Source: an uncultured Candidatus Saccharibacteria bacterium (GTDB lineage Bacteria > Patescibacteriota > Minisyncoccia > Phycocordibacterales > UBA918). Taken from it: a stretch of 64,000 nucleotides of DNA. The notes under the pieces are model-generated. The model made no database searches, was not told where the DNA came from, and saw only the letters and a list, made by a program, of their open reading frames with translations. Numbering within the stretch: the first letter of the stretch is position 1; every line of letters begins with the position of its first letter. Position numbers and translations under genes: made by a program. Shown here one piece after another: positions 5,185-58,440 of the stretch. The DNA lies in the NCBI GenBank assembly GCA_964399295.1, contig CAYNQD010000001.1, positions 463,672 through 527,671 on the forward strand, given 5' to 3'.

Positions 5185-5315
5185 ACCTCCCTTATACTCT
5201 GAAAAATACATGATGTGAAGAGTTGTTTCAAACAATCCCTATCCTTATCCCAAGCAAAAATTTGACATTAAGACCAAATCCTAGTATTTGTTACAAATCT
5301 ATACCCAATATAAAT

Positions 5316-7676
5316 ATGAGCAAACAAACTTTAGTTATCGTAGAATCGCCGGCCAAGGCCAAGACCATTGAAAAATATCTGGGGGCAAATTATCGTGTTA
5401 TGTCCTCTATTGGCCACGTGCGTGACTTACCCAAGAGCAACACCGACGCTGTCGATATTGACGGCGGTTTTGTGCCGCGTTACATCATTTCGCCAGGTAA
5501 AGATAAAATCATTGACGGCTTGAAAAGCGCCGCCAAAAAAGCCGATGTTGTCCTCTTGGCTTCCGACCCCGACCGCGAAGGTGAAGCTATCGCCTGGCAT
5601 GTCGCTGAGCTTATCAAGTCCGCCAATCCCAATTTCAAGCGCGTGGTTTTTCATGAAATCACCGAACCGGCCATCAAAGAAGCGATTGGCCAGCCGCGTG
5701 ATTTGGATTTGAATTTAAAAGAAGCGCAAGAAGCCAGACGCGTACTGGATCGCTTGGTTGGCTATGACTTGTCGGGATTGATTTGGAAAAAAGTCCGCTA
5801 CGGCTTGTCGGCCGGCCGCGTACAATCGCCGGCGCTCCGAATAGTAATGGAGCGCGAGCGCGAAATTCGCGCTTTTATCCCCGAAGCCTACCACACCCTC
5901 ATCGCCCACACTGTTGCCGGCAAGCTACCGATACCTTTTTCCTGCACAGTGGAGCCTAGGGAACGGATTGAAGCAGAAAGAATAAAAAGCGTGGGCGAAG
6001 CCAACACTTGGCAAATCACCAATCTCAAAGAGACTGAGGTGAAGCGTGCGCCGCGCCCGCCTTTTACCACCTCGACTCTCCAACAAACCGCCTCCACCCG
6101 TCTGGGCTTCTCGCCTTCGCGCACCATGGGCGCGGCGCAAAAGCTATACGAAGCCGGCCATATCACCTATATGCGTACCGACAGCACTACCATCAGTGCC
6201 ATGGCTCAAAAGCAGATTATCGCCCTGTTGCATGCTGATTTTGGCAAGGACTATGCTAGTCCGCGCCAATACAAAACCAAAAGCAAATCAGCCCAAGAAG
6301 CTCACGAGGCCGTTCGACCAACCAATTTCGCCAAGCGTTCTCTAGGCAACACCGCTGACCAAAAAGCTCTCTACGAGTTAATTTGGAAACGAACAGTATC
6401 GTCACAAATGTCCGATGCTGTCATGAAGCGGACCAAGCTAATAACCAACATCACCAACAAAAAAGAAACCATCCCCGACTTTGCTGTGACGGGTTCTCGG
6501 GTTATGTTTGACGGCTGGCTAAAAGTCGATACCACCGCCCGCGGTGAAGACACCGAAGTACCAAAGCTCGCCATCGGTGACGATTTAAAACTAAAGGAAA
6601 TCACCATTGAAGATAAGGAAACCCAACCCCCCAACCGCTACACCGAAGCTGGTTTGATTAAGGAGCTGGAAAAACGCGGTATTGGCCGTCCTTCTACCTA
6701 CGCCTCCATCATGAAAACCATTACCGATCGCGGCTATGTGCTCAAAGAAGGCCGCACCCTGATTCCGACAGACACCGGCGACGTGGTCTCCACTTTCCTG
6801 GAGCAACATTTTACCGATTACATAAGCGACACTTTCACCAGCGAAATGGAAGATGAGCTGGATGAAATAGCGGAAGGCAAACGCACTTACGTGAAAACTC
6901 TACGGGATTTCTATACCCCTTTCCAAGCCAGTGTTGCCAGCAAAGCCGACATTGAAAAAATCACCAACCTCGGTGCCGGCCCCAAGCAGTTTCCCTGCCC
7001 GGAATGCGGAGCGGATATGATTATCAAGCTCGGTCGCGCCGGTACTTTCTTATCCTGCAACCGCTTCCCCGACTGCGTGGGTGCTCGCCTGATAGACGGC
7101 AGCGAAATGAAACCAGACGCCCCCATAGGTAACGACCCAGAGACAAATTTGCCGGTCTTTGTCATGAAAGGTAAATACGGCCCTTATGTCCAGCTTGGCG
7201 CCACACCGGAAAAGAAAAAAGGCAAAAAACTGCCCACACCAAAACGCGCCTCTCTGCCAGCCGGAATAAAGCCGGAAGATGTTACCCTGGACCAAGCCTT
7301 GCTGTTTCTCACCCTACCGCGTGAACTCGGTCCCCATCCTGCCACCGGCGAACCAATAATCGCCAACACCGGCCAATACGGCCCCTACTTGGCGCACGCT
7401 GGAGATTTTCGCTCCTTGAAAGGCAATGACGACCCCTATACCATCACTTACGACCGCGCTTTGGAAATTTATAAAGAACCAAAAGGCACGCGCAAAGGAG
7501 AAAAACTAATCAAAGAACTAGGCGTCAACCCAGGCACCAGAAAATTGGTCAACGTCTTTGAATCCAAATCCGGCCGTTATCTAAAAAAAGGCTTCAAACG
7601 CATCTCCATCCCCGACGAAATAAAAACCGAAGATATAAGTTTGGAAGTGGCAGTAGCGCTTTTGAAGCAGGGGTAG
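5316..7676 (+). CDS. topA: DNA topoisomerase I
   Basis: TOPRIM start MSKQTLVIVESPAKAKTIEKYLG, active-site region, C-terminal Zn-ribbon (CPECGADMIIKLGRAGTFLSCNRFPDC). The track ORF starts at 5223; the conserved N-terminus begins at the ATG at 5316. Confidence 0.9.
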   Translation: MSKQTLVIVESPAKAKTIEKYLGANYRVMSSIGHVRDLPKSNTDAVDIDGGFVPRYIISPGKDKIIDGLKSAAKKADVVLLASDPDREGEAIAWHVAELIKSANPNFKRVVFHEITEPAIKEAIGQPRDLDLNLKEAQEARRVLDRLVGYDLSGLIWKKVRYGLSAGRVQSPALRIVMEREREIRAFIPEAYHTLIAHTVAGKLPIPFSCTVEPRERIEAERIKSVGEANTWQITNLKETEVKRAPRPPFTTSTLQQTASTRLGFSPSRTMGAAQKLYEAGHITYMRTDSTTISAMAQKQIIALLHADFGKDYASPRQYKTKSKSAQEAHEAVRPTNFAKRSLGNTADQKALYELIWKRTVSSQMSDAVMKRTKLITNITNKKETIPDFAVTGSRVMFDGWLKVDTTARGEDTEVPKLAIGDDLKLKEITIEDKETQPPNRYTEAGLIKELEKRGIGRPSTYASIMKTITDRGYVLKEGRTLIPTDTGDVVSTFLEQHFTDYISDTFTSEMEDELDEIAEGKRTYVKTLRDFYTPFQASVASKADIEKITNLGAGPKQFPCPECGADMIIKLGRAGTFLSCNRFPDCVGARLIDGSEMKPDAPIGNDPETNLPVFVMKGKYGPYVQLGATPEKKKGKKLPTPKRASLPAGIKPEDVTLDQALLFLTLPRELGPHPATGEPIIANTGQYGPYLAHAGDFRSLKGNDDPYTITYDRALEIYKEPKGTRKGEKLIKELGVNPGTRKLVNVFESKSGRYLKKGFKRISIPDEIKTEDISLEVAVALLKQG

Positions 7677-7787: not shown

Positions 7788-9329
7788 ATGACGGCGCAGG
7801 ATATAACCAAACATTTAAAAGACCGCACTCCGGAAGAAATAAAGCTGGTAGAAGACGCTTTTGCCTTTGCGGAAAAGGCTCACGCCGGCATGAAAAGATA
7901 TTCCGGCGAGCCATACATGAACCACTTGGCAATGGTGGGTTTGCTACTGGCAGAAATGGGCATGGGTCCGCGCACGATTTCTGCCGGTCTTTTGCACGAC
8001 ACCATTGAAGACACTACGGTTACGCCTGAAGACATCAAACAGAATTTTAATGAAGAAATTCTTTTTCTGGTGGACGGAGTAACCAAGCTAAGCTCAGTGA
8101 GATATTATGGAACAAACCGTCACAACGAAAGCTTGCGGAAACTATTTGTCGCCACCAGCCAAGATATCAGAGTTTTGATTATCAAACTGGTCGACCGATT
8201 GCACAACATGCAAACCCTAAATCACGTTCCGAAAGAAAAACAATTCCGCATTGCCAGTGAAACTCTTGAAATTTACGTTCCCGTCGCGCACCGGCTGGGC
8301 ATGGGCAAGATACGCAAAGAGTTGGAAGACCTGGCCTTTGCTTACGTTTATCCGGAGGAATATGAAAAAGTACGCGGTCTTTTGGAAGCAAAAATAGGAA
8401 AATCAAACGAACTGCTAGAAAAAGAAAGAAAAATTTTGCAGAAAAAGTTGGCCGACGCGAAGCTGCTAGACTTCAATACATCCTACCGAGTAAAAGGTCT
8501 TTATAGCCTCTATCACAAACTAAAGCGTAAAGACTGGGACATAAATGCTGTTTTTGATTTACTGGCGATGCGGGTGGTGATTTCCAGTGTTGAAGATTGC
8601 TATCGCACTCTTGGCATCATCCACGAATTATGGCGCCCTCTTCCGGGCAGAATGAAAGATTATATCGCTTTCCCCAAGCCCAACGGCTATAAATCCATCC
8701 ACACCACTGTCACCACCCAAAACGGAGTTATTATGGAAATTCAAATCCGCACTAGAAAAATGCACCACGAAGCGGAGTTTGGAGTCGCCTCTCACATCAC
8801 CTACAAAGAACCACAAATAACGGGAGAGAAAACCAAACCTTCCGGATTTTTAAATCTAATACCAACCCTCTTTCGTCCTTTCACCAAACAAAACAACGCC
8901 ATCGATCAAGCCACCATCAGAAACACCTCCCACCACGACAAAATTCCCCTTTGGATATCACAAATAGGAAAAACCTATAATAAAGAAAAATCCAGCACCG
9001 ATGATTTTATTGAAGACATAAAAAATGATTTCTTCACTAATCGCATTTTTGTCTTTACCCCCAATGGTGACGTGGTTGACTTACCTGCCGGAGCCACGCC
9101 GATTGATTTTGCTTATGCCATTCATTCCGAAATTGGAGACCACGTCTTTGGTGCCAAGGTTAACAAAAAACTCATCACTCTTGATTCCGAACTTAAAAAC
9201 GGCGACATCGTAGAAATCGAAACCCGCAAATCAGCCAAGCCAACCGAGAAATGGCTAATCTCAGCCAAGACCTCAATGGCACGTCGTCATATTAAGAATG
9301 CTTTGGAAGAAGAAAAAGGTCTAAACTGA
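7788..9329 (+). CDS. rel: bifunctional (p)ppGpp synthetase/hydrolase, RelA/SpoT homolog (HD, synthetase and TGS domains; no ACT domain)
   Basis: HD motif (HLAMVGLLLAEMGMGPRTISAGLLHDTIEDT), RelA/SpoT synthetase region (YKSIHTTV..GVIMEIQIRT), TGS (IFVFTPNGDVVDLPAGATPIDFAYAIHSEIG). Confidence 0.85.
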   Translation: MTAQDITKHLKDRTPEEIKLVEDAFAFAEKAHAGMKRYSGEPYMNHLAMVGLLLAEMGMGPRTISAGLLHDTIEDTTVTPEDIKQNFNEEILFLVDGVTKLSSVRYYGTNRHNESLRKLFVATSQDIRVLIIKLVDRLHNMQTLNHVPKEKQFRIASETLEIYVPVAHRLGMGKIRKELEDLAFAYVYPEEYEKVRGLLEAKIGKSNELLEKERKILQKKLADAKLLDFNTSYRVKGLYSLYHKLKRKDWDINAVFDLLAMRVVISSVEDCYRTLGIIHELWRPLPGRMKDYIAFPKPNGYKSIHTTVTTQNGVIMEIQIRTRKMHHEAEFGVASHITYKEPQITGEKTKPSGFLNLIPTLFRPFTKQNNAIDQATIRNTSHHDKIPLWISQIGKTYNKEKSSTDDFIEDIKNDFFTNRIFVFTPNGDVVDLPAGATPIDFAYAIHSEIGDHVFGAKVNKKLITLDSELKNGDIVEIETRKSAKPTEKWLISAKTSMARRHIKNALEEEKGLN

Positions 9330-10883
9330 AAAGTTACGGATTGAATATAAATCGCTGTCGTCTTCATTTTTTGGAGGCATTTTTGCCGGCTCTGCTTTAG
9401 CTACCGGCTGTATAGGCGTAGGTTGAACCGGAGCGTTGGCAACTGGCCAAACATTTGTAGGAGCAGGCGCAGAGGGTGCGGGCTGCTGGACTGGTGTGTG
9501 CGGAGTGTGCAAATAGCCGTCTGGCTGATGATTGGCGATTTGCTCGTGTTCAACTGGTGTAATAAGAGGGACAGGCTGAGGGGCCGGAATTTGATTTGGA
9601 ACGTGAGCTTGAGCTGGCAAAGAAGACGACTGGGTTTCATTGGCATAAGCAGGAGCTGGTTCAGCCGCGACACTAGCTGGAGACGTTGGCGGTGTTGGAA
9701 AATCCACTGGCACAGGAGGTGTTGGCGCTGTCGTTATTGGTGTATATGTTGGTGTTGTCATCGACTCTGATGTCACCACTGGTTCCATGTCCGACATCGG
9801 TGTCGGTTCTGATTTTGGTAACGACACAAATTCTGATATCGTTTCCGGCTCTGATAGGAGTTCAGGTGTTGGTGTTGGTATTGATTCTGACACTGGCTCA
9901 ATATTTTCCCTCACCAGCGACACAGTATCATTTTGTGGCCAATAATTCTCCTCGTCTATTTTAGAGGAAAGGGTTTCGTCTTCCCGCATTGTGGTCAAGG
10001 GAGTGTGGGCGATTAGTTTATCCAACTCCTCACCTTCGCCGGTTTGTCGTCTGATATCATCATCTTTCATTCTGGACAGCATCAGTTCCAAATCTTCCAC
10101 TGAAAAATAATCAATGGTCAATTGTCCACCGTAATCGGTTTTTTGGATATGGACACGAGTGCCGAGAGTTTCCATAAAACGCTTTTCCATTTCAATCAAT
10201 TCCGTATCAAATTCACCGGGAATTTTCTTTCGTACCTTGTCGGTGGCAATCTTTCGTACTATTTTTTCTACTTCGCGCACAGATAATTTTTTGAGTATCG
10301 TTTCCCTGAAGACCACATCTTGCTCTTCCGGCTTATCATTGAGCATCAGCAGAGTGCGGGCGTGTCCTTCCGTCATTTCACCTTTTTTAATCGCGGTTAG
10401 CATGTATTCCGGCAGGCCCAGCAAGCGAATGGAGTTGGACACATATTCTCGACTTCGACCAACCTTTCTAGCCACTTGAGAATGAGACAAGCTAAAAGAA
10501 TCAGCCAACTGCTTGAAAGCAATGGCCCTATCCACGGCATTCAAATCTTCCCGCTGAAGATTCTCAATGATGGCCAATTCCAATTTTTCTTGGTCGTTAT
10601 TTTCACCCTCGCGAATAATGACCGGCACTTGTGATAAACCAGCCATTTTACTAGCCCGCAAACGCCTCTCTCCCGCCACCAATTCGTATTCTGTATAAAA
10701 AGTTCCATCCTCTCGCTGAATTTCATTACGAGTCACTGTCAAAGGTTGCAAAACCCCGTACATCTTTACCGAATCAGACAATTCTTGTAATTTTTGCTCG
10801 TCAAATTCACGCCGTGGCTGATACGGATTTGGAACTATCTTTTCTACTTCTACCCAAAAAATTGAATCTCCCTGGAATGCCAT
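9321..10883 (-). CDS. parB: ParB/Spo0J family partition protein with ~260-aa Pro/Thr/Ser-rich C-terminal tail
   Basis: ParB N-domain (GERRLRASKMAGLSQVPVIIREG) and HTH (SHSQVARKVGRSREYVSNSIRLL); the C-terminal half is low-complexity P/T/S/Q-rich. Confidence 0.8.
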   Translation of the reverse strand: MAFQGDSIFWVEVEKIVPNPYQPRREFDEQKLQELSDSVKMYGVLQPLTVTRNEIQREDGTFYTEYELVAGERRLRASKMAGLSQVPVIIREGENNDQEKLELAIIENLQREDLNAVDRAIAFKQLADSFSLSHSQVARKVGRSREYVSNSIRLLGLPEYMLTAIKKGEMTEGHARTLLMLNDKPEEQDVVFRETILKKLSVREVEKIVRKIATDKVRKKIPGEFDTELIEMEKRFMETLGTRVHIQKTDYGGQLTIDYFSVEDLELMLSRMKDDDIRRQTGEGEELDKLIAHTPLTTMREDETLSSKIDEENYWPQNDTVSLVRENIEPVSESIPTPTPELLSEPETISEFVSLPKSEPTPMSDMEPVVTSESMTTPTYTPITTAPTPPVPVDFPTPPTSPASVAAEPAPAYANETQSSSLPAQAHVPNQIPAPQPVPLITPVEHEQIANHQPDGYLHTPHTPVQQPAPSAPAPTNVWPVANAPVQPTPIQPVAKAEPAKMPPKNEDDSDLYSIRNFSV

Positions 10884-13218: not shown

Positions 13219-13290
13219 GGGCCTATAGTTTAGTGGTAGAATGCTGGTCTCCAAAACCAGCGGCCGAGGTTCGAGTCCTCGTGGGCCCGC
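13219..13290 (+). tRNA. tRNA-Trp (anticodon CCA)
   Basis: Acceptor gggccta/tgggccc (one G-U), anticodon loop ctCCAaa, T-loop ggttcgagtcc. Confidence 0.75.
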
Positions 13291-13294
13291 CGAT

Positions 13295-13609
13295 TTAAGT
13301 CAGCGCGATATGTCGCAAGTAATCAGACAAGGTTCTAAAGCCAGCTTTGATTGCTCTTTCTTCTATTTTCAACTTATCCTCAGGGGAAATACGAAAACGC
13401 ACGATATCACTTTGTTTATCTTTTTTTTCTTTTTCAGCAACAATAAGACTTGGTAAGTCTATCAATAAGTCGGCCACGTCTTCCTTCAAAAAATCTTGGT
13501 CAATTCGAGCAGCTTCACAATTAATATGAACCACCTGATTAGTCTTTTCCATTAAAGAGTATGTGTATTTTTTATTTTGAACAGTGATTGAAGAGAGAAA
13601 TTTTTTCAT
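13295..13609 (-). CDS. hicB: HicB-like antitoxin with C-terminal ribbon-helix-helix DNA-binding domain
   Basis: C-terminal RHH motif (RFRISPEDKLKIEERAIKAGFRTLSDYLRHIAL); immediately downstream of hicA in the same orientation. Confidence 0.5.
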   Translation of the reverse strand: MKKFLSSITVQNKKYTYSLMEKTNQVVHINCEAARIDQDFLKEDVADLLIDLPSLIVAEKEKKDKQSDIVRFRISPEDKLKIEERAIKAGFRTLSDYLRHIALT

Positions 13610-13635: not shown

Positions 13636-13884
13636 TTATGTATTGTTGTTTGATATTTTGAATATATATTCTTTTGCCTGTTCTTTATAAAAATCTTTGC
13701 ATTCGTTATTATGTACAGGAATAATTAAATCGTACCGAAGTTTGTCGTGACTATATTTTATATGACTACCTTTCGCGGGAATTTGAACAAAACCATAATA
13801 CTTTAAAATTATCACCAAATCTCTATATTTGATTGACTTTGGCCTTTGTAGAAATTTCTGAACTAATTTCTCTTTCTGTGACAT
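13636..13884 (-). CDS. hicA: HicA family (YcfA-like) mRNA interferase toxin
   Basis: HicA signature (YRDLVIILKYYGFVQIPAKGSHIKYSH...LIIPVH). Confidence 0.65.
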   Translation of the reverse strand: MSQKEKLVQKFLQRPKSIKYRDLVIILKYYGFVQIPAKGSHIKYSHDKLRYDLIIPVHNNECKDFYKEQAKEYIFKISNNNT

Positions 13885-13956: not shown

Positions 13957-13991
13957 CAAAACAACACGTTTTTAAGTAACGTGTTGTTTTT
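13957..13991. terminator. hairpin aaaacaacacgtt-loop-aacgtgttgtttt followed by a T-run; putative terminator
   Basis: 13-bp inverted repeat followed by tttttg. Confidence 0.5.
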
Positions 13992-14012: not shown

Positions 14013-14918
14013 TTAATGATTGCCAACAAAGGAGATATCCCAGTGATCTGGTGGCCCATGGCGGTAGTAAATATTTCCGTCCGGATCTTGCCATTTAGAA
14101 TTAGAACCAGAGACCCTAGTAAAATTATTCATAATATAATTATTTACGCTGCTATCTTTCGAGGATAAGTCAATCTTATATCCATTGCCGTGACTATAAT
14201 CACCAGAAGCATGTCCGGCCTCAGTCCCCCCCGTAACAATAATCGGCCCACCAAAGCCTTGCTGAAATTTATTCAGTCCATTAATTGTATTTTGCTGGAT
14301 ACCATCAAGTGATGTGCAGTTCGTCCTGGTCCTATCTGAACACTCACCACTTGAGCGGACAGTTATACCATTATTTAAATTACTTACCGCATCAGCGTGA
14401 GTATACTGACCAGCTGAAGGCGGGGGCGTAGGAGCTCCCGTAGTAGGGACATAAACATCATCGCTCGCATTGCGAGAATACTGAAGTCCGTCCGTCTGAA
14501 GCTGACATTGCACCTCAGCCCAAGGGCCCCAGCCCGATATTTGTCCTGCTGTAGGACCACTACCCACCAGACCTCTCATTATGGTGTCAATGAGCAACCA
14601 AGAAGCCATCACAATAATGAGTCCAATAATCGCATTTTGAAATTTTGTTTTGGCCGCGTCGAGCGCCGTTTGATTGCCACCAGAAGTCACAAGCCCAAAA
14701 CCGGCAACCAATAGTAAAACAGCGAAAATCAAAAAAATAATCCCAAACAACCAAACAACAATCCCATTCACCATGTCTATCAAATTACAAAAACTGCAAT
14801 CAGTACCATCACAGGTCAAGAATCCGCCATAGGGAACAGCATTGGCGGTATCAAGTGGAGCCAAAACCAAAATAAACGCTATCGCAACAAAACTCAGACC
14901 TTTAAAAAAATTTTTCAT
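14013..14918 (-). CDS. secreted/membrane protein: signal peptide, Cys-rich VirB2/TrbC-like two-helix hairpin, C-terminal putative Zn metallopeptidase-like cell-wall hydrolase domain
   Basis: N-terminus MKNFFKGLSFVAIAFILVLAPLDTANA then CDGTDCSFC followed by two hydrophobic helices. C-terminal His/Asp motifs (YSHGNGYKIDLS ... RHGPPDHWD) resemble LAS/M15-type peptidases; that assignment is tentative. Confidence 0.5.
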   Translation of the reverse strand: MKNFFKGLSFVAIAFILVLAPLDTANAVPYGGFLTCDGTDCSFCNLIDMVNGIVVWLFGIIFLIFAVLLLVAGFGLVTSGGNQTALDAAKTKFQNAIIGLIIVMASWLLIDTIMRGLVGSGPTAGQISGWGPWAEVQCQLQTDGLQYSRNASDDVYVPTTGAPTPPPSAGQYTHADAVSNLNNGITVRSSGECSDRTRTNCTSLDGIQQNTINGLNKFQQGFGGPIIVTGGTEAGHASGDYSHGNGYKIDLSSKDSSVNNYIMNNFTRVSGSNSKWQDPDGNIYYRHGPPDHWDISFVGNH

Positions 14919-14940
14919 ATCAATAATAATTTACTATTTA

Positions 14941-15936
14941 TCATAATTTTTCCGCTATTTTGTTAATGTTTTCCACATAATGGCGAGTCTCTTTGTAGCC
15001 GGTGTTGGGGGTACAGCTGGTATTGCTCGTACCATAGCAACCGGAGCTATCCCACTCACACTGCCAACCTTTTAGCCCGGGACAATCCTTACTCGGTAAA
15101 TTGGCTTTTGGGCCGCCATTGTAAGCAGCTAGAGCTAGGTCGGTATCACCGCCGTAATCATTATACAATTGGTTAAAATATTTAGCGCTGAGAGCTAGAT
15201 TATAAGCATCGTCGTCACGTAATTTTGCCGCTATTTGCGCTTGGGTCATGCCCGCCAAATCAGGATCGAGACCTCGCGCCGTGCTGACCAATAATTGCCC
15301 ACAACCATAGGCTGTCCCGAAATTTGTAGCTGGCCCAGTCTTATTTGTGCAGTTACTGGATTCCTGAGAAATTAGGGATTTGAAGATTTTTTGTTGCGCG
15401 GGATCGGTTATGCCATTTGCCGCGGCGGCGGCTTCAATATCTGTCTGTAGGCTGCCGGAGCTACTGATTCCATTGACCCGGTTACTGATTTCTGAAGATG
15501 ACAAGACTTTTTCATTATCCCCAGAAGCAGTTCTTCTGGCCGCGGCTTGAGCTGTCGGCTGAGCTACGCACTGGATATCATTCCAAACACCATAAGTGGG
15601 ATCATCGACCATTACTTTCATTCCAAAATCCACAATCAGCCAGCCCGCCAAAAATATAATGTATCCAACAATGACATTGGCTATTATCCTTTTAGCTTGA
15701 GTTTTTGCTTCCACCGCGCCGACAGACGAAACCAGCCTCAGTCCCATGACGGCAATAATCAAGGCTACGATGATAAACAACACCACTCCGAGCCAATCGA
15801 CAACATTATTAATCAACTTAACAACAGAACAAAACTGACAAGGGTCTTCCCCCGGACCGCCACAAGGCACCAAGCCCGCCGCTGCTGTCATCTCTGGCAA
15901 GGCAATAATCAAAGCGACAAAAACAGCTTTCAACAT
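14941..15936 (-). CDS. paralogous VirB2/TrbC-like N-terminal hairpin fused to a family-1 lytic transglycosylase (SLT) domain
   Basis: N-terminus shares the CGGPGEDPCQFC plus two-helix architecture with the neighbouring gene. C-terminal SLT motifs (ISQESS, GCGQLL, AAYNGG). Confidence 0.65.
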   Translation of the reverse strand: MLKAVFVALIIALPEMTAAAGLVPCGGPGEDPCQFCSVVKLINNVVDWLGVVLFIIVALIIAVMGLRLVSSVGAVEAKTQAKRIIANVIVGYIIFLAGWLIVDFGMKVMVDDPTYGVWNDIQCVAQPTAQAAARRTASGDNEKVLSSSEISNRVNGISSSGSLQTDIEAAAAANGITDPAQQKIFKSLISQESSNCTNKTGPATNFGTAYGCGQLLVSTARGLDPDLAGMTQAQIAAKLRDDDAYNLALSAKYFNQLYNDYGGDTDLALAAYNGGPKANLPSKDCPGLKGWQCEWDSSGCYGTSNTSCTPNTGYKETRHYVENINKIAEKL

Positions 15937-16049: not shown

Positions 16050-16134
16050 GCGTCGGTGGTGGAGTGGTCAATCACAACAGACTGTAAATCTGTCGGCAAA
16101 TGCCTTCGCTGGTTCGAATCCAGCCCGGCGCACC
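16050..16134 (+). tRNA. tRNA-Tyr (anticodon GTA), type II long variable arm
   Basis: Acceptor gcgtcgg/ccggcgc (one U-G), D-stem gtgg/tcac, anticodon loop ctGTAaa, T-loop ggttcgaatcc, discriminator A then CC. Confidence 0.7.
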
Positions 16135-16495: not shown

Positions 16496-17572
16496 TTATT
16501 TATCAGACCGTTCAATAACCTCAAATTTTCTGGTGCTTAAGTCGGTAAAACCTGTCAGTATCTGCAGATGTGGCACCAGATCCGGCACTTTATCCCTGAT
16601 AATATTCTGTGCAAACTCACTGAGAAACAACGCTTTTTCCCTGGCCAGATGATATTCCGGACCCGCTTCATCACGAAACGCGGCTGAGGTCAATAAGACA
16701 ATTCCATTTGGATCGACGCGACCGTCATCAATATTCCCTTTCAGAAGTCTTGCCGCTGTCTCAATAGCAACCGATAAATTCGGATCAAACGGTCCTACAA
16801 TAAATGCTGTATTAATCGCATGCAACCAGTCAAATCCACGCCCCACACCCAGAACCCATTCTTTATGCTCAGCATCTTCAGTGGGTCTGTTAGATGCACG
16901 AATTTCAGCAATATGCCTGATATTGCCACGAACAAGCGGAATCAGATCCCGTACAATCCGTTCGGGCATGGCCGGATACAGGGAATAGAGCAACTCCTCC
17001 AACTCCAACTGCGAAGATTGCTTGATTTTCGCCAGATCGACAACTGTTTCTACATCTTCACCATGTAAAATCAGCGCGTCCAGATCAGTTTCAATACCAC
17101 AGACAATGGGCATTACAGCGCCGCCCCTGCCATAAACGCGGATAAACTGATCTTTGAGCTTGATTGCGGCATCTCTGGCCGCGTTGGTATCATAGTTAAA
17201 ACCACGACAACCACGATGCGTATCACCACGCGCATAATGATAGGTTACAAAAACCAGGCAGTGCCTGCCACGTCCGATCGAATACTGCACCCATTGTTCA
17301 ATTATATTTTGAAAAAAAGGCCAGCCCAGATCAAATTTACCGCCCAGATTACGGAACGGTTGAATAATACCCAGTGCAGTTTGCGTCATCACCGGCAAAT
17401 GCAGTCGGCCATCCATGCATTTAAGCGCAGCTATTTCAGTTGGATGCTCGCCCCTGTATCTGCGACGTTCGGATGAAAGGTCCATAAAAGCCTGCGAATG
17501 CCTGGCATTCAAATCAAGTAGGTAATCGATACCTGTATTTTGTGTAGTCATAATACACGAGCATAATAACAT
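16496..17572 (-). CDS. hypothetical protein with beta-carbonic-anhydrase-like zinc-ligand motifs
   Basis: CxDxR (KCMDGRL) and HxxC (GDTHRGCRGF) spaced as in beta-class carbonic anhydrases, but at 358 aa it is much longer than canonical beta-CA; tentative. Confidence 0.35.
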   Translation of the reverse strand: MLLCSCIMTTQNTGIDYLLDLNARHSQAFMDLSSERRRYRGEHPTEIAALKCMDGRLHLPVMTQTALGIIQPFRNLGGKFDLGWPFFQNIIEQWVQYSIGRGRHCLVFVTYHYARGDTHRGCRGFNYDTNAARDAAIKLKDQFIRVYGRGGAVMPIVCGIETDLDALILHGEDVETVVDLAKIKQSSQLELEELLYSLYPAMPERIVRDLIPLVRGNIRHIAEIRASNRPTEDAEHKEWVLGVGRGFDWLHAINTAFIVGPFDPNLSVAIETAARLLKGNIDDGRVDPNGIVLLTSAAFRDEAGPEYHLAREKALFLSEFAQNIIRDKVPDLVPHLQILTGFTDLSTRKFEVIERSDK

Positions 17573-18164: not shown

Positions 18165-20864
18165 TTAAGCAGTTACCGGTAATTTGGTTTTACTGGTGCG
18201 TTTTGGGGAATAATCGTTATTTCTTCCTCTCTTTTTTACCTCAAAACTAAGCTCGCCTTTTTTCATAGTTACTCGTACCGAACCGCGTTGCAACATCCCC
18301 TCTCCCACCATCATGTTGGCTACCGGGGTGAGGATTTTGCTTTGGATTAGACGCTTGAGCGGCCGCGCACCAAACTTTGGATCATAACCTTCTTTAGCCA
18401 AGTAATCCAAAACCTCATCCGACATGGTAAGAATAATTTCTTTCTTCTCCAGCCGTCTTTGTACGTCATCAATCTGGATATTAACAATGCTGCGCAAAGT
18501 CTCAGGCGAGAGAATGTCAAATGTAATAATTTCATCAAGACGATTCAGAAACTCCGGACGGAAGTAAAGCTTCAGACTTTCTATTACTTTATCCTTAGCC
18601 TGAATATACTGCGCCACTTCACCCTTATCAATAGCAAAACCGAAATTGGACATTTTGTCGATATGTTCCGCACCGATATTGGAAGTCATGATAATGACCG
18701 TGTTGCGGAAATTGACTTTACGTCCTTTGGCGTCTGTCAGGTGGCCGGAATCAAGCACTTGCAGGAGAATGTTGAAAACCTCTTTGTGCGCCTTTTCGAC
18801 TTCATCAAGCAATATTACTGAATACGGTCGGTGTCGCACGCGCTCAGTAATCGAACCACCCTCCTCGTGTCCCACATACCCAGGCGGCGAACCGATAATC
18901 TTAGAAACCGAATGTCTCTCCATAAACTCCGACATGTCGATACGCAAAAGCGCGTCCGGATCATTAAACATAAATTCCGCTACCGCTCGCGACAACTCAG
19001 TCTTACCAACACCAGTCGGCCCAAGAAATAGAAACGATCCGATAGGACGATTGGGATCAGCAATACCAGCCCGTGAACGCTTGATAGCATCAGCCACCAG
19101 CTTGATAGCGTGGTCTTGCCCCACCACCTTGGTGCGCAAGACTTCTTCCATCCGCGCCAGTTTCTTGGCCTCAGCTTCAAGCATTCTCGATACCGGTATA
19201 CCAGTCCAACGCGACACCACACCGGCAATATCTTCCTCCGTCACTTCTTCTTTCAAAAGACGGCGACTGCGTTGCAGTTTCTTTAGTCGCTTCATTCTTT
19301 CATCCAAACTACGCTGCACGGACGGAATGGAATCATAACGAATCTCCGCTGCTTTAGCCAAGTCAGCCATAGCTTCCGCTGTTTCAGCCTCAACCCGCAA
19401 TTCTTCCATTTCTTTCTTGAGCTTACTGATCTCACCCAAAGCGGTTTTTTCATTATTCCATTTTGTTTCCAGAGCGGAAGTGGTTTCTTTTAATTCACCG
19501 ATATCCTGTTCAATCTCCTTAATCCGGTCTTTGATTTTTTTCTTATTCTCTGAAACTTCCACTTCCTTTTTCAAAGCTTCCCGCTCAATCTCCAGTCTCC
19601 TGACCTTTCTATCAGCCAACACTAGTTCCTCCGGCTTATTTTCAAGAGAAATCCTAAGTGCCGAAGCCGCTTCGTCAATCAAATCCACTGCCTTGTCTGG
19701 CAAAAAACGATCAGTGATATAACGAGAAGATAAATCCACTGCGGAAACAATCGCATCATCGGTAATTCGCACGCCGTGGAAAAGCTCGTACTTTTCCGAC
19801 AAGCCGCGCAAAATAGCCACCGCGTCTTCCGGTGAAGGCTCATTGACAAACACCGGCTGAAAACGACGAGTTAGAGCTGGGTCTTTTTCAATGTGTTTTT
19901 GGTATTCTTTAAGCGTGGTCGCTCCTATCACTCTAATTTCCCCGCGCGCCAAAGCTGGCTTCAGCATGTTGGAAGCATCCATCGAGCCTTCCGCTTGTCC
20001 AGCTCCGACAATAGTGTGAAGTTCATCAATAAAAAGAATAATCGCGCCGCCGGAACCTTCCACTTCTTTCATGACGGCTTTTAGTCTTTCTTCAAATTCT
20101 CCGCGGAATTTTGTTCCCGCCACCAAAAGGCCCAAATCCAATGATAAAATTTCCTTTTCCTTAACCGACTCCGGCACATAACCAAGAACGATCTGCTGAG
20201 CCAAGCCTTCGGCAATAGCTGTCTTTCCCACGCCGGCTTCTCCAATCAAAACCGGATTATTTTTGGTGCGACGTGACAAAATCTGGATAACTCGCTGAAT
20301 TTCAATATCACGCCCAATCACCGGATCGAGCTTGTTTTCCTGCGCCAACTTGGTTAGATTCCTCGTGTACTTGGTCAAAGCTCGATATTTTTTTGGAGTC
20401 TGCGCGTCAGTGATGTTGTGTTCGCGAATTTCTTTTATGGTACGCAAAACTTTTTCCTTATCAATTCCCGCTCGACGTAGAAGCTCGGTCGTTGGCCCCG
20501 GATATTCCAAGATTGAAATAAATAAGTGCTCAACACCAATATACGAATCGCCCATTTGCTCAGAAATACGCATTGTGTATTCCAGAGCCTTGGCTAATTC
20601 TGGGGTCAGATATAGCTGGTATGAAGGCGAAATAGTGGTCTGCATATCTGCCACCTCTATCGCTTCAAGCAACATGTCGGTAAAAGCAATGACGTCAACG
20701 TCCAACCTGTCCAAAATCGAGATGACCATACTCTCATCCTGCATGGATAAAGCCGTCAATAAATGAACCGGACTAACGTGATTTTGTCCACGCTCTATAG
20801 CCAGCTCGTGGGCTTTGCGAATGGCTTCTTTAGCTTTTGATGTAAAATTTTGAAAATTAGGCAT
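18165..20864 (-). CDS. clpB: ATP-dependent chaperone ClpB (two AAA+ modules with coiled-coil middle domain)
   Basis: Clp N-domain start, two Walker A sites ([15 protein letters not shown]; [15 protein letters not shown]), long coiled-coil insert, 899 aa. Confidence 0.9.
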
Positions 20865-31635: not shown

Positions 31636-32895
31636 CTATAACGAGTCGTCCGATGTCAGGTACTCGTCGCTATGCTTTTTCATCTGTTCAATAACTCCAG
31701 TTCTGAAGTTGTATTCTATGGTCATGATCGGCCCGTCGTCATTGTTCAGCCTATTATTTTTTCTGTCTATGGTCGGGACATTGCGGAAGGATAATATCTC
31801 GATTTCGCCCCGTTTCATTTGGTTGATATAGGAAGTGCTCGTTCCCACGCAGTGATCCATGTACTCCGACTCTTCTTCCAGGTGCGGCATATTCAGGAGG
31901 CGCGCCACATAATACTTGCCGGACTTGGTGGTGAAAAAATTTTCCCACGGATTAAATCCCTCGCCCGTTTGTTCGGCCTTGCGTTTGCGTATCTCGGCAA
32001 TCTTTATGAGCGTTTTTTCTTCGTGGACTTCAAACAGGCGATGAAGCGAACCTTTGTCGGTGCTGATAAATTTTGGAGATTCTATGATGGCGTCGTAAAG
32101 CACATTCGCATCAACGGCGTCGTTATTTTGAAAATGTCTGGCAATCTTTAGTTTGAGAACCGCCTTCTGGCGTTCGCCAAACACAAAAGGCTTTTCGTCC
32201 TCGCCTTGCGCCGCCTCCCTCTCAACCGCCTTAAGACGCTCTGCAAGCGTGTTGAAGGTGTCGTTCATGAGACGCTCTTTCCCCGCGCGTTCCTGCTCGG
32301 AAAAAGTGCCGAGCGTTTTCTGATATTCCTGATTGATCTTGGCAAGATATTTCTGTTCAAATGCTGCAATCTGCTCCCGTTCCACTTGTTCAGGCGACTT
32401 CTGGTCTACCAGTTTCTTCTCGAAAAAGTCCGCGCTCATGCCGCCCATATCATCCGTACGGATTCTTTCAAAACCATAGCGCTCCAGGATCCGATTCAGT
32501 CGAGCGTTCCAGTCGTGGAAATTCAATCCGGTATACCCTTGCGTTTTCGCATACTCCAAAAATGCTGGGATTTCCCGAAAAAGATTCTTCCCCGTTGATT
32601 TCGTTGTACCGAAATATTTTATATACGCTTCATGTGGAATGAAGTCCTCGCAAGCGATGTATCCGGAAACATCGCCATCTTCGTCAGATATGATTCGGTT
32701 AAGAGGATGGCCGTTTTCGAGCGTGCGGATAACATCCGGGACTGCAAGTTCTCTGACGATTTCCTCCACTTCTTCTATACCCAAGGTGATTTGGCGGATA
32801 TCCTGCTTCTGTTCTTCCGACAAGACCAGCCGTTCGTTCGATTTTTCTTTCTCCTGAGCGTATAGGGTGCTTTTTCCATATTCTGATTTTAGCAA
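31636..32895 (-). CDS. hypothetical protein (419 aa); C-terminal HCVG-containing region possibly PcfJ-like
   Basis: C-terminal motif YMDHCVGTSTSY; N-terminal segment ends ...RYGFERI (GNAT-like?). Tentative. Confidence 0.35.
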   Translation of the reverse strand: MLKSEYGKSTLYAQEKEKSNERLVLSEEQKQDIRQITLGIEEVEEIVRELAVPDVIRTLENGHPLNRIISDEDGDVSGYIACEDFIPHEAYIKYFGTTKSTGKNLFREIPAFLEYAKTQGYTGLNFHDWNARLNRILERYGFERIRTDDMGGMSADFFEKKLVDQKSPEQVEREQIAAFEQKYLAKINQEYQKTLGTFSEQERAGKERLMNDTFNTLAERLKAVEREAAQGEDEKPFVFGERQKAVLKLKIARHFQNNDAVDANVLYDAIIESPKFISTDKGSLHRLFEVHEEKTLIKIAEIRKRKAEQTGEGFNPWENFFTTKSGKYYVARLLNMPHLEEESEYMDHCVGTSTSYINQMKRGEIEILSFRNVPTIDRKNNRLNNDDGPIMTIEYNFRTGVIEQMKKHSDEYLTSDDSL

Positions 32896-53138: not shown

Positions 53139-53714
53139 TTAGGATTCTAGCAAAACTTCACGCTGAATAGTACCGGCACTTCCAATACTGCCACAGGATT
53201 TATTGTATCCTTGGACAGAAATAATCGTACATCGTCCGCCAGGCTCGCAGGTTTTTGTCGACCCACCAGAATAGCCTGGTAAAATTGTCTGCATGTTGCC
53301 TATCTCAACCCCAGACGAATTGTTGTCGGAATTAAGCAAGACCATAGCCACCCTTGAGCAACGCTCGGCTCCAACACCACCCCAACTAAACTCAAAATCA
53401 TAACGGTGAGCGTCACCTTCCAAGACTGCTACAGGGTCTGAGCTTTTCATAATATTATCACCAAAACATTCAAAAATTACAGTATTCCCATCCTCCAACT
53501 CTTGAAATTCCTTCAACCGCCAGTACTGCGCGCATTCCAGTCCGGCATTGGCGGCATGAAAAGCGATTTCAGAATCTTTGGAATTGGTCGATAAGCTGAG
53601 CTGCTTGATGGTGAGATCTAAAATGGTCAAACCAACCGACACCACCACCCCCACCACAATGAGCGATATAAGTAAGGCAAAACCTGATGTTTGTTGATTT
53701 TTAGTTGTTATCAT
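53139..53714 (-). CDS. pseudopilin-like protein (prepilin-type N-terminal hydrophobic helix without Glu5)
   Basis: N-terminus ..TSGFALLISLIVVGVVV; last gene of the minor-pilin run. Confidence 0.45.
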   Translation of the reverse strand: MITTKNQQTSGFALLISLIVVGVVVSVGLTILDLTIKQLSLSTNSKDSEIAFHAANAGLECAQYWRLKEFQELEDGNTVIFECFGDNIMKSSDPVAVLEGDAHRYDFEFSWGGVGAERCSRVAMVLLNSDNNSSGVEIGNMQTILPGYSGGSTKTCEPGGRCTIISVQGYNKSCGSIGSAGTIQREVLLES

Positions 53715-54315
53715 AGGTATTAAATAAATAGGTTTCTATCTCAACTCTTTGCTCGGCTATCAGGGAGCCGGTGCGCCAAGTCACAACTGAACGTACCATA
53801 ACTTCTCTTTCCTCAGCGCCAGAAGGAATGGAAAAATACACCCGACGCGTGAACGGAGTGGGGGTATTGCCAGCGGCAGTGTGAGTAAACCAAGACCTCT
53901 CACTATTATTAGGACGTTGACGCAAGAGACAAGGAGAGTTCACCCCACTACAAGAGACTGGTGTTTTCAACTTTCCGTTATTAACATTAGAATCCCACTC
54001 CAAACCGCAACCAGAGGAGCCAAAACAAGCTGAATAAATTCCACCGGAATTTTGTTTAAATTTGGACCAAGGATCATCAAAGCCAACTGGATTGTGAATA
54101 TTTTGCAACTGTAATTCATTTCTGGCTTTCTGCGCCAACTCAATACCCTCCTGTGCCAGAAAAAAGGCTTGTATTTGCTCAGTGGCAAAGGTGGAACTTT
54201 TGGCGGTTTTGGAAGATATAGCCATCGGTACCGTAATCACAATCAGTAAGATAGAAATCGCCACCAAAGTTTCAACCAAAGAAAAACCGTTTTGTTTGTG
54301 ATGAAAATGTATCAT
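53701..54315 (-). CDS. type IV minor pilin (prepilin-type N-terminal cleavage/methylation domain)
   Basis: NGFSLVETLVAISILLIV (G-F-x-x-x-E motif). Confidence 0.65.
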   Translation of the reverse strand: MIHFHHKQNGFSLVETLVAISILLIVITVPMAISSKTAKSSTFATEQIQAFFLAQEGIELAQKARNELQLQNIHNPVGFDDPWSKFKQNSGGIYSACFGSSGCGLEWDSNVNNGKLKTPVSCSGVNSPCLLRQRPNNSERSWFTHTAAGNTPTPFTRRVYFSIPSGAEEREVMVRSVVTWRTGSLIAEQRVEIETYLFNTYDNN

Positions 54316-54956
54316 ATATCCAAAATTCTTTGCGTTACCGTTGTCTGCATATTATAAACCTTACCAGTTGGATTGTCTTTTTCTTTGGCCCTTAGGTGAA
54401 TAGTGATGGTTGGCTGCTCCACATCTATATCAGCAGTATCCAGAGACTCACTGCCGGTAACAAAAAACTGCGCGTCTGTTATCTCCAAGCCAGAGGACAC
54501 AATAGATTGAGGTGTATTATCCCCAATTCGTCTAAATAATTTGTTGGTGTCAGTATCGTAAAAATACAAAATACGCGAAGATCCGGAAGAACCAGTGATA
54601 CTATCTCCTCCTTCAAAAAAAGACACGCCTTGAAACCGGAAACTTGAGGTATTCCCACTGGCACAATCGCGGGTGTCTTTATCTAAATTTTCATGTTCGT
54701 TACTACTACCATAAAAAACACCCCCTGAGCTGGCGCTGTCACAATAATAATAATACCCCGTTCTCATTTCCCTGGTCATGCTGTCCATCGCGAAAGCCAA
54801 GGTGGTCATGATGCTTTGTTCGGCTTGAAGCTGTCTGTTGGTAGCGATAACCGCTAGCAAAGCTCCCACCGCGATAGTCACCACCACCGCGAACACTCCC
54901 AAAGACACGATCATTTCAATCAAAGAGAAGCCGGATTGTCTTTTTTTTATAAACAT
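54312..54956 (-). CDS. type IV minor pilin
   Basis: SGFSLIEMIVSLGVFAVVV. Confidence 0.65.
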   Translation of the reverse strand: MFIKKRQSGFSLIEMIVSLGVFAVVVTIAVGALLAVIATNRQLQAEQSIMTTLAFAMDSMTREMRTGYYYYCDSASSGGVFYGSSNEHENLDKDTRDCASGNTSSFRFQGVSFFEGGDSITGSSGSSRILYFYDTDTNKLFRRIGDNTPQSIVSSGLEITDAQFFVTGSESLDTADIDVEQPTITIHLRAKEKDNPTGKVYNMQTTVTQRILDI

Positions 54957-54965
54957 ACAACAATT

Positions 54966-55568
54966 TTATTTTACCGAAATTTGACCAGTACGAGTAATTT
55001 CAACTGTGCGTTTGTCAGCCGCCGCTCCTCGCAGACAAATATCTATTTCCGCAGCTACTGTATCAGTATCCCAAGCGCCTGATGACTCATGGAAAAGCGC
55101 GTCGAAATTTGGTCTTTCAAAAGTTATCGACATGGCATCAGGTGTGTATTTAACATCACCGTTTCCATCTACACCTCTAATATCGCAAATTTCAAAACGC
55201 GGATCTAAAACCCCTTGCCGACCAAATTCTTCACCCGAGTTAAAATAATTATTACCGTTTATATCTCTAAACAGAGAGTATTTTTGGTTGGCTCCTGACT
55301 TAGAAAAATGAAGGCCGTAAACATTGCGGAAATCTGTCGATTCACCAATTGCTCCCACCGCGAAAAGCTGTATCTCCCGAGCTTGAAAAGCTACTTCGTA
55401 AGCCTGGCTTTGTAGCAAGACCGCGCTGTTGAAAGCGCTGTGCCTAGCCAAAATAACGCTCATCACAATCACCAAAATACTGATGCTCACCAAAAGCTCC
55501 ACCAAACCAAAACCGCTGTTTTTTAAATGGCGACCAATCCGCACGTAGTGATAATTATTTTGGAACAT
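54966..55568 (-). CDS. type IV minor pilin
   Basis: SGFGLVELLVSISILVIV. Confidence 0.65.
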   Translation of the reverse strand: MFQNNYHYVRIGRHLKNSGFGLVELLVSISILVIVMSVILARHSAFNSAVLLQSQAYEVAFQAREIQLFAVGAIGESTDFRNVYGLHFSKSGANQKYSLFRDINGNNYFNSGEEFGRQGVLDPRFEICDIRGVDGNGDVKYTPDAMSITFERPNFDALFHESSGAWDTDTVAAEIDICLRGAAADKRTVEITRTGQISVK

Positions 55569-56394
55569 AGCTTACTAATTTGATGACATCAATCGCAAAG
55601 AAAAAAACCGTGAGAAAACCAAGAATCAGAAAGGGCGCAAATGGCACCGCACTCTTAATTGTAAGCTCTGTTGGCAAGAAACGTAAGCGTGGTTGTCCAC
55701 GTTTTTTCAATGACTGCAAACCAAGAAGAGCCAGCCCCGCCACGGCTCCAATCCAAAATGACCACACCAAAAGTGAAAACACCCAAGCCTGACCAACAAA
55801 AATCCCCAGCGGAAAAACCAACTTCACATCGCCAAAGCCAATCCACCGCCCATCTGATATTCGCCACAGTAAAAAAAGAAACAACGCGCCAAAAAAAGCG
55901 GATCCTAAATTCCAAAAGAAAGTGGAAATTTCCAAACCCAGCCAAAGCAAATAAAATTGTTGCCCCATAGCCAAAACCAAAAGCGCAAAAACTAATTTAT
56001 CGGGAATAATGAGGTGATACAAATCATAAACCGCGATCACCACCAAAACCGCCACAACCGCCCAGAAAAGAAAAATCAAAAACAAATCAGCCAAACACCA
56101 AGCCACCCCAACAAACAAAAGCCCCGTCAATAGCTCCACCAAAAAATAACGAACCGGGATAATCGCGCCACAGCTCCGGCATCGTCCTCTCAAAACCAAA
56201 TAAGACAGGAGTGGAATCAGCTCATAGGCCTTTAGCTTGGCATTGCAAGACAAGCAATGCGAACTACCATTTAGTGATTTGCCGGTATGCAAACGATAAA
56301 TAAAAACATTGAGAAAACTGCCAATAATCACGCCGAAAATAAAAGTAAAAAAAACCATCAAGCCGACAGGTAAATCAGAAAATATTTGTAACAT
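55555..56394 (-). CDS. pilD: prepilin peptidase (A24 family) PilD
   Basis: N-terminal Zn-binding CxxC pairs (CLSCNAKL..CRSCGAII) and eight TM helices typical of PilD. Confidence 0.8.
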   Translation of the reverse strand: MLQIFSDLPVGLMVFFTFIFGVIIGSFLNVFIYRLHTGKSLNGSSHCLSCNAKLKAYELIPLLSYLVLRGRCRSCGAIIPVRYFLVELLTGLLFVGVAWCLADLFLIFLFWAVVAVLVVIAVYDLYHLIIPDKLVFALLVLAMGQQFYLLWLGLEISTFFWNLGSAFFGALFLFLLWRISDGRWIGFGDVKLVFPLGIFVGQAWVFSLLVWSFWIGAVAGLALLGLQSLKKRGQPRLRFLPTELTIKSAVPFAPFLILGFLTVFFFAIDVIKLVSYVPK

Positions 56395-56415
56395 GACACA
56401 CTAGTATAACACTGC

Positions 56416-56485
56416 ATCAATGTTCAGTCGTGGTTTTACCCTTATCGAACTTCTTGTTGTAATCGCTATTATTGGTATTTTGGCG
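56416..56485 (+). repeat. 70-bp inverted-repeat copy 1: duplicate of the pilA 5-prime coding end on the opposite strand; opens a 29-aa pilin N-terminal fragment ORF (MFSRGFTLIELLVVIAIIGILAFAGPVIHV, 56420..56509)
   Basis: 70/70 identity to the reverse complement of 56941..57010. Confidence 0.85.
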
Positions 56486-56564
56486 TTTGCTGGGCCGGTG
56501 ATACATGTAGCATTGTCGCTGGTACGGATGTTCTTTGTAACTAATTTATAATTTAACCCTAAAA

Positions 56565-56590
56565 ACAAAAAACCGCCGAGGCGGTTTTTT
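56565..56590 (-). terminator. rho-independent terminator of pilA (aaaaaaccgccgaggcggtttttt)
   Basis: Perfect GC hairpin flanked by A/T runs immediately after the pilA stop. Confidence 0.75.
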
Positions 56591-56610
56591 TGTTTTAATA
56601 ATAAGTATTA

Positions 56611-58430: not shown

Positions 58431-58440
58431 ATTGTTAAAT

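Follow-up and report, generated by a model that had tools for sequence, protein, structure and literature searches.

A conserved pair of predicted murein hydrolases carried on a VirB2-like hairpin module in Patescibacteria

Two neighbouring genes in the window (the whole stretch of DNA analysed here, 64,000 nucleotides), which we call A and B, each join a pilin-like two-helix membrane hairpin to a predicted wall-cutting domain, of the lytic transglycosylase type in A and of the zinc peptidase type in B. We propose that the pair forms a membrane-tethered, two-enzyme set for opening murein, built on a VirB2-type hairpin that would serve as an address or scaffold, and we put the probability of this reading at about one half. 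Within it, the topology, the disulfides, the enzymatic activity, the address role and the identity of the wall that is cut are the parts that we infer. The two genes and their parts are as follows.

14941..15936, minus strand: gene A, fusion of a pilin module and an SLT lytic transglycosylase domain, 331 amino acids, upstream member of the operon-like unit
15877..15936, minus strand: A signal peptide, residues 1-20, predicted site between AAA and G; hydrophobic segment 1-20/25
15559..15876, minus strand: A hairpin module, residues 21-126, with C25, C33, C36, membrane helix 1, basic loop, membrane helix 2 and W118-x4-C123
15103..15396, minus strand: A SLT domain, residues 181-278, family-1 lytic transglycosylase, PF01464
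14944..15102, minus strand: A Cys-rich C-terminal tail, residues 279-331, with C285, C293, C300 and C308; 59% mean identity to orthologues
14013..14918, minus strand: gene B, fusion of a pilin module and a LAS-type zinc peptidase domain, 301 amino acids, downstream member of the operon-like unit
14838..14918, minus strand: B signal peptide, residues 1-27, predicted site between ANA and V; helix 4-19 in the AlphaFold2 model
14496..14837, minus strand: B hairpin module, residues 28-141, with C36, C41, C44, membrane helix 1, loop TSGGN..AK, membrane helix 2 and W133-x4-C138
14412..14495, minus strand: B Pro-rich flexible linker, residues 142-169; predicted local distance difference test (pLDDT) below 50 at 141-160; 22% identity to orthologues
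14028..14411, minus strand: B putative zinc-peptidase domain, residues 170-297, LAS/M15-like (hedgehog / DD-peptidase fold)

The first-pass annotation had described two adjacent, co-oriented genes whose products begin with a signal peptide, a Cys motif and two hydrophobic helices, and each of these features was found in both proteins. The two open reading frames (ORFs) are neighbours on the minus strand, separated by 22 bp according to ORF calling, and each product has three hydrophobic segments, namely the signal peptide and two long helices. The N-terminal modules of A and B are 36% identical over 136 residues (BLASTP, E 2e-20), and a profile built from the relatives of B matches A at 2.9e-27 and no other ORF of the window. 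Both modules run from the signal peptide through a C-x(4-7)-C-x2-C motif and a pair of membrane helices, joined by a basic loop, to a terminal W-x4-C; the Cys motif reads C36-DGTD-C41-SF-C44 in B (C-x4-C-x2-C) and C25-GGPGEDP-C33-QF-C36 in A (C-x7-C-x2-C). By hydropathy the helices span approximately residues 42-82 and 92-119 in B and 37-77 and 83-111 in A, and the AlphaFold2 model of B places them at 43-78 and 83-119 with a pLDDT of about 90. The inter-helix loop is short and holds the only nearby Lys and Arg residues (K90 and K92 in B; K78, K82 and R83 in A), and the signal cleavage sites were assigned from the sequence by the AxA (-3/-1) rule. The hydropathy, the placement of Lys and Arg and the modelled helices fit a predicted arrangement of a signal peptide plus two helices, with the termini outside and the basic loop inside.

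Conservation of the module is high. Its four Cys and its Trp are invariant across 125 distant representatives, the Cys and Trp are likewise invariant in a further alignment of the module, and the Cys motif is kept in 234 of 238 homologues. The mean identity of the B module to 58 orthologues is 57%, compared with 50% for the catalytic domain of that family and 25% for the B signal peptide, and the A module has a mean identity of 52% to 112 orthologues, compared with 57% for its catalytic domain; across the two families the signal peptides stand at 25-28%. The linker of the A family is also fairly conserved, at a mean identity of 42%.

The assignment of the module to the pilins is based on profile membership. 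Both proteins pass the gathering score of the Pfam T4SS_pilin model PF18895 (cut-off 26.6), A with 33.2 bits over residues 38-104 and B with 30.1 bits over residues 50-112, and almost all homologues of A and B carry this domain. PF18895 is the model by which the VirB2-like pilins of Patescibacteria are defined (PMC12102498). In addition, one relative, P0114, whose module is 59% identical to that of B, passes the TrbC/VirB2 model PF04956 with 28.2 bits (cut-off 27.9) across almost the entire model; a second, P0118, scores 26.7, and further relatives, 6-7 by one count and about a dozen by another, reach this model at E<=1e-3. The membership of A and B in PF18895 and the PF04956 pass of P0114 thus support the pilin-like reading of the module that had been suggested at the outset. 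A holin or a lipoprotein anchor had been named as the outcome that would speak against it, and no holin, SAR (signal-arrest-release) or lipoprotein-anchor family in Pfam, NCBIfam or PHROGs matched the module; NCBIfam gave only faint matches to membrane proteins of monoderm conjugation systems. On these profile matches we place the module in the PF18895 branch of the VirB2/TrbC-like pilins.

This branch is large. At E<=1e-3 the module profile detects 53,602 representatives, each standing for a cluster at 50% identity, and at 1e-10 it detects 6,990. PF18895 is present in 124 of the 125 nearest single-module representatives, in 103 of the 125 the module is followed by 120 or more residues, and the recognisable cargo of this set consists nearly exclusively of murein hydrolases. 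Some members with a PF18895-type module are encoded inside type IV secretion system (T4SS) clusters (PMC12102498). We also observed "polypilins", in which 5-17 tandem copies of the module are present in a single ORF (P0246, 1775 amino acids; P0359, 1147; P0241, 820; P0242, 552); the repeats of these proteins are clear in the sequence, and they have lost the Cys motif in part or completely.

The family-1 lytic transglycosylase that the first-pass annotation had recognised in one of the two proteins is located in A. The SLT domain of A scores 34.7 bits against PF01464 (cut-off 21.3; E 1.4e-8) and contains the catalytic-type E192-S193, G-x-G-Q-L213 and AYNGG271 motifs, which are retained in 86-101 of 116 orthologues, and most of the 148 homologues of A in a large protein collection have the same two domains. 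By family and motifs, then, A is a predicted lytic transglycosylase. The His/Asp motifs that had suggested a zinc peptidase in the other protein proved to be invariant in B and its relatives (G-H236, H243-x6-D250 and H292-x-D294 in 32 sequences), and the fold matches point to the LAS/M15 type. In the B family profile the G-H...H-x6-D motif is aligned to the zinc site of hedgehog N-domains at E ~0.1, and the C-domain, a confident alpha/beta domain in the model of B, has a pLDDT of 92 when modelled alone; its best match in BFVD is then a hedgehog-like viral protein (E 5e-4, probability 1.0), followed by M15 peptidases. B, which has 268 homologues in the same protein collection, contains an additional conserved Cys pair in this domain (C193, C201). 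On the strength of the motif and the modelled fold, we identify the C-domain of B as a putative zinc peptidase of the LAS/M15 type (hedgehog / DD-peptidase fold).

We gathered 79 loci from species-level genomes of Paceibacteria/Parcubacteria, with one genome per species, by contig look-ups and an alignment-profile scan; a scan of the genome contigs with B alone as query gave no matches, and the alignment query succeeded. All 79 loci occupy one syntenic slot, in the order aminotransferase, ClpB, the slot itself, MiaA, (peroxiredoxin), ParB, RelA/SpoT, TopA, DprA and SerRS, and the same order is present in the window (ClpB 18165-20864, MiaA 12232-13128, ParB 9321-10883, RelA 7788-9329, TopA 5223-7676). 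Two co-oriented module genes are present in 58 of the 79 loci, and the remainder have one. The first-pass annotation had proposed a survey of genomes of the candidate phyla radiation for the pair and had regarded the arrangement as non-standard; the survey did find the pair, in these 58 loci, and the arrangement is instead the norm of the lineage and occupies one and the same core-genome position in 58 or more species-level genomes. The few named sources of A and B homologues are likewise Patescibacteria (Paceibacterota, Nomurabacteria and Parcubacteria). A mobile-element or prophage origin of the pair was considered and rejected in view of the strict core synteny.

Within the 58 paired loci, the upstream members with named domains carry SLT (14), SLT_3 (9) or VanY (1), and the downstream members carry Peptidase_M15_3 (8), M15_4 (5), NlpC/P60 (5), Extensin-like_C (5), VanY (4) or a hedgehog-like domain (3), with M15_2, Amidase_5 and one SLT_3 as rarer cases; approximately 11 more downstream members are of the B type according to a local hidden Markov model. 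Positional equivalents of B in other genomes do pass curated Pfam peptidase models. Among the members whose catalytic domain can be named, the order rule is an upstream glycan cutter and a downstream peptide cutter; roughly half of all members lack a named catalytic domain. The catalytic families have been exchanged among lineages, and the module and the pair of predicted activities have been retained.

Other forms of the module occur in the same slot. Intact module-only genes of 124-131 amino acids, which end just past the fourth Cys, substitute for the upstream glycosidase fusion, or for the whole pair, in several species.

L015:9893-10282: module-only gene
L019:9983-10372: module-only gene
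L022:603-992: module-only gene
L051:9932-10306: module-only gene
L073:9950-10345: module-only gene

In two further loci the upstream slot holds a larger protein that begins with thrombospondin-type and CARDB-like domains and has the pilin module as its C-terminal part (L057:7553-10318, 921 amino acids; L054:5869-8097, 742 amino acids), an architecture which indicates that the module carries N-terminal, adhesin-like cargo too. A gene of about 170 amino acids lies between the two fusion genes in 30 of 76 loci, all 30 among the 58 paired ones (for example L012:9457-9993 and L042:9431-9955; cluster 6); its product has one N-terminal helix, a conserved C-terminal G-L-S-F-C-P-G-S and no Pfam match, and the gene is missing from the window. 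Where the pair is reduced, giant proteins of 1,400-1,960 amino acids were seen in the ClpB-MiaA slot (L077:4395-8834; L083:4402-8688; L072:1881-7763, minus strand), with wall-hydrolase domains of the M23 or SLT+M15_3 kind or, in L072, a match to Hydrolase_2 below threshold. The pair in L043 is followed by a GH5 cellulase gene.

These observations can be assembled into a mechanism. The Sec signal peptides of A and B would be removed on export, and the hairpin would reside in the cytoplasmic membrane with its basic loop inside and both termini outside; on this outer side, the four conserved Cys probably link the new N-terminus with the end of helix 2. In each protein the enzyme part would be held just outside the membrane on a flexible linker of 30-55 residues; A would cut glycan strands, B would cut peptide stems or cross-links, and together they would open the murein locally. 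The hairpin would then be an address or scaffold that places the enzymes among or beside assemblies of the many VirB2-like pilins of Patescibacteria. We favour a role beyond that of an anchor because the hairpin equals the catalytic domains in conservation (52-57% versus 50-57%) and is far from the values of the signal peptides, and because intact module-only genes stand in for the upstream fusion in several species; these genes themselves speak for an independent role of the module.

Several results weigh against this reading. No pilus of Patescibacteria has been shown experimentally (PMC12857230). A and B themselves gave no match to PF04956 at E<=1, and alignment of the module profile by hhalign with the single sequences of RP4 TrbC and Ti VirB2 gave nothing significant. 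Sequence searches of the PDB with A, B and the profiles matched no solved pilin and gave nothing for the hairpin, the only matches being marginal ones to SLT and hedgehog domains. In a Foldseek search of the PDB with full-length B, in which the two domains blurred the result so that the C-domain was also searched separately, MepA came first (E 0.16), and the archaeal conjugative pilin 8dfu was found at rank 30 as a weak match. These direct comparisons with TrbC/VirB2 folds and profiles, of the kind that the first-pass annotation had suggested, were negative or weak. Because A and B miss PF04956 while some of their relatives reach it, the relation of the module to canonical VirB2/TrbC pilins is, as judged from these profiles, remote and transitive only. 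As for the peptidase, the best PDB matches of the C-domain of B by Foldseek (MepA, the Indian hedgehog N-domain and LdcB) have weak E-values, and none of the 32 B-type C-domains passes PF08291, PF13539, PF02557, PF05951 or PF01085, the best sub-threshold match being one to VanY at E 0.12; since no Pfam model detects it, we treat this domain as a candidate unmodelled subfamily.

The neighbourhood of the pair also weighs on this side. No VirB4-type ORF was found among the window ORFs of at least 471 amino acids, no T4SS ATPase was found in the window within 14 kb on one side and 48 kb on the other side of the pair, and the large ORFs that were scanned in the 79 related loci yielded no VirB4 either, about nine large ORFs lying outside that scan. 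The neighbouring VirB4 or VirD4 genes that had been proposed as a check were therefore not encountered, except for a weak VirD4-like ORF in one of the 79 loci. This 625-amino-acid ORF (L025:18628-20507), about 8 kb from the pair, has a VirD4/TraG-type match of 22.7 bits to PF02534 and is the sole T4SS-type hit. The window also contains a type IV pilus cluster at 53139-61705, with a PilB-type ATPase at 59873-61705 (T2SSE, 388 bits) and neighbouring ORFs of PilT and PilC size. A 419-amino-acid ORF at 31636-32895 has a PcfJ-like match (PF14284, 24.7 bits, slightly below the cut-off of 25), the family being named after a gene of the conjugative plasmid pCF10.

A different explanation, which we regard as unlikely, is that the hairpins, with or without short VirB2-like pilins, assemble into a conjugative-type pilus, a filament that would present the C-terminal enzymes along its outside or at its tip and digest the wall of a host or partner at the point of contact. 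In VirB2/TraA-type pilins, as in the F- and T-pilus structures, both termini face outward, so cargo at the C-terminus, or at the N-terminus as in the L057 and L054 proteins, would be exposed on such a filament. The strong conservation of the module, inter-helix loop included, and the module-only paralogues at the same locus would be in keeping with subunits that polymerise, the proteins with 5-17 tandem modules suggest lateral packing, and the swapping of peptidase families among lineages would be expected if the chemistry of the target wall differs. In Paceibacteria, moreover, proteins with the T4SS-pilin domain rank among the highest-expressed unknown extracellular proteins (PMC10936435). 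However, no such filament has been observed in Patescibacteria, T4SS genes were not found near the locus, and a domain of 15-20 kDa on each subunit would crowd a VirB2-type helix. Methanogenic archaea have no murein, yet some Paceibacteria are parasites of these hosts (hosts from PMC10936435), which would be a difficulty for this reading if the strains concerned carry the pair. In its boldest form, to which we give slightly less credence still, the hairpins would be true structural pilins that build a VirB2-type filament or membrane array with outward-facing hydrolases, and with adhesin-like domains in other paralogues, and drill through the wall of a partner at the place of attachment. If this is true, the locus would encode an enzymatically armed conjugative-type pilus, with the pair of glycan cutter and peptide cutter as its core toolkit.

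It is about equally doubtful that A and B are housekeeping autolysins that remodel the wall of the cell itself as it grows and divides, with the hairpin a mere pilin-derived anchor lacking any link to a T4SS or pilus. The fixed, vertically inherited slot amid ClpB, MiaA, ParB, RelA, TopA and DprA in 79 of 79 loci is what such a role would predict, as are the single copy number, the 50-65% identity to orthologues, the other giant wall hydrolases that occupy slots devoid of the pair and the T4SS genes not found nearby. A pure anchor, however, would be expected to drift to the level of the signal peptide (25-28%), whereas the module stands at 52-57% with invariant polar motifs and four Cys, and the module-only genes stay intact after the enzyme part is lost. 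The very large size of the module family (53,602 representatives), with some members in T4SS clusters (PMC12102498), also fits an anchor poorly.

Still less probable is a pro-pilin, in which the C-terminal enzyme is cut off past the fourth Cys so that a soluble hydrolase is freed and a mature short pilin is left. The processing of TrbC and VirB2 at the C-terminus is established, TrbC losing its C-terminal tail, and the natural module-only forms stop exactly past the fourth Cys, where the segment that follows is disordered and poorly conserved in B; but the locus showed neither a conserved cleavage motif nor a dedicated protease gene, and the linker of the A family is fairly well kept, at 42%. 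Finally, a phage lysis remnant, composed of a holin-like or SAR membrane domain and endolysins, would accommodate the matches of PHROG endolysin and lytic tail families to A, which are restricted to its SLT part, and the phage M15 peptidases matched by the B domain in BFVD, but it is effectively refuted by the core synteny over 79 species, and it is also opposed by a module that matches no holin or SAR family, by a cleavable Sec signal followed by two strongly hydrophobic helices and by the lack of phage-type families among the scanned window ORFs and flanking genes.

The surroundings of the two genes comprise the following features.

13958..13990, no strand assigned: terminator-like hairpin, a 13-pair inverted repeat from the scan, read on the minus strand
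13219-13291: tRNA-Trp, flanking the pair region
16050-16134: tRNA-Tyr, flanking the pair region
13636-13884: HicA, toxin gene
13295-13609: ribbon-helix-helix NikA-like protein, partner of HicA

The hairpin at 13958-13990 lies directly 3' of the stop codon of B and, as read from the sequence, would be the end point of the A-B unit; the region upstream of hicA has a perfect sigma-70 consensus promoter, TTGACA-16-TATAAT (13940-13913). Given the 22-bp gap, the hairpin after B and the separate hicA promoter, A and B look like a single transcription unit, that is, an operon-like unit of two genes. The first-pass annotation had placed the pair next to a hicAB module and tRNA-Trp; HicA and the tRNA are indeed there, but the partner of HicA is the ribbon-helix-helix NikA-like protein and not HicB. 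A functional link of the pair to hicA or tRNA-Trp was considered and rejected, since hicA looks like a transcription unit of its own and no hicA-like gene was called in L005-L007, three annotated loci from other organisms with the same synteny. For the latter reason hicA is probably a recent insertion, and the hicA and tRNA neighbours are incidental to the pair. Two other ORFs nearby deserve mention. A 358-amino-acid ORF beside the pair (16496-17572) scores 25.8 bits against PF20686, the catalytic domain of carboxysome-shell carbonic anhydrase and a family that is unexpected in Patescibacteria, and the ParB ORF (9321-10883, 520 amino acids) has a C-terminal half of about 250 residues that is of low complexity and rich in Pro, Thr and Ala, an apparently unusual feature in ParB.

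Earlier work has described VirB2-like pilins, tandem pilin arrays and an essential T4SS in Patescibacteria (PMC10633639, PMC12102498, PMC12857230), and the pilins together with the essential and functionally unexplained T4SS have been much discussed recently (PMC10633639, PMC12102498, PMC12857230, PMC11665869). Freshwater metagenomes are rich in PF18895 proteins (10.1101/2025.04.23.650224), and Paceibacteria express such proteins highly (PMC10936435). The adjacent, highly expressed genes with a pilin domain in Kuroda et al. 2024 may be this pair. The literature searched yielded no account of pilin-hydrolase fusions or of the conserved pair, and the database labels of the orthologues are automatic only, for example "Type IV secretion system pilin/Transglycosylase SLT domain". 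Our analysis suggests that a large, Cys-stapled branch of the pilins serves mainly as a carrier of wall-degrading enzymes and that the carrier follows a simple rule, a glycan cutter and then a peptide cutter at one core-genome site throughout the class. The pair provides testable candidates for how monoderm, ultra-small cells open murein, whether their own or that of a host, and bears on whether the "pilins" of Patescibacteria act as subunits of filaments or as scaffolds in the membrane. It may have a bearing, too, on the rarity of VirB1 homologues in the T4SS clusters of Patescibacteria.

With the VirB2/TrbC pilins (PF04956) and the VirB2-like pilins of Patescibacteria (PF18895; Wang et al. 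2023, PMC10633639; Quinonero-Coronel et al. 2025, PMC12102498), A and B share the signal peptide, the two-helix hairpin and the short basic loop. Unlike VirB2/TrbC pilins, they have a four-Cys motif, their genes do not adjoin virB3, virB4 or virB6, and they add C-terminal enzyme domains of 160-200 residues, which rule out head-to-tail cyclisation in the TrbC/VirB2 manner for as long as the cargo stays attached. A muralytic enzyme held at the membrane by an N-terminal hydrophobic segment is also seen in the SAR endolysins and holin-endolysin cassettes of phages; in contrast to the single, weakly hydrophobic helix of SAR endolysins, A and B are predicted to have a two-helix pilin hairpin behind a cleaved signal, and they are core chromosomal and class-wide. 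B appears to share the fold and the G-H ... H-x6-D ... H-x-D pattern of the LAS zinc peptidases (MepA, VanX/VanY/LdcB, MepK/M15A, phage M15 endolysins and the hedgehog N-domain), and relatives of B at the same locus carry true LAS-type domains of PF08291, PF13539, PF02557 or PF01085; unlike the known LAS peptidases, B escapes recognition by Pfam and has the Cys pair C193 and C201.

A further parallel is offered by the VirB1 class. In PrgK of pCF10, TraG of pIP501 and CwlT of ICEBs1, a single protein of a monoderm T4SS combines an SLT or muramidase activity with a peptide-cleaving activity, and so opens the wall at one spot. These monoderm VirB1-class enzymes, which are cited in PMC12102498, provide membrane-tethered cleavage of both glycan and peptide, as we predict for A and B together. 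In contrast to them, A and B split the two activities over two proteins, use a pilin hairpin as anchor and lie outside any T4SS cluster, and the peptidase is of the LAS/M15 type in B, or NlpC/P60 in other lineages, instead of CHAP. By this analogy the A-B pair may work like the VirB1 class, but because its genes lie outside a T4SS cluster, we do not file it as a member.

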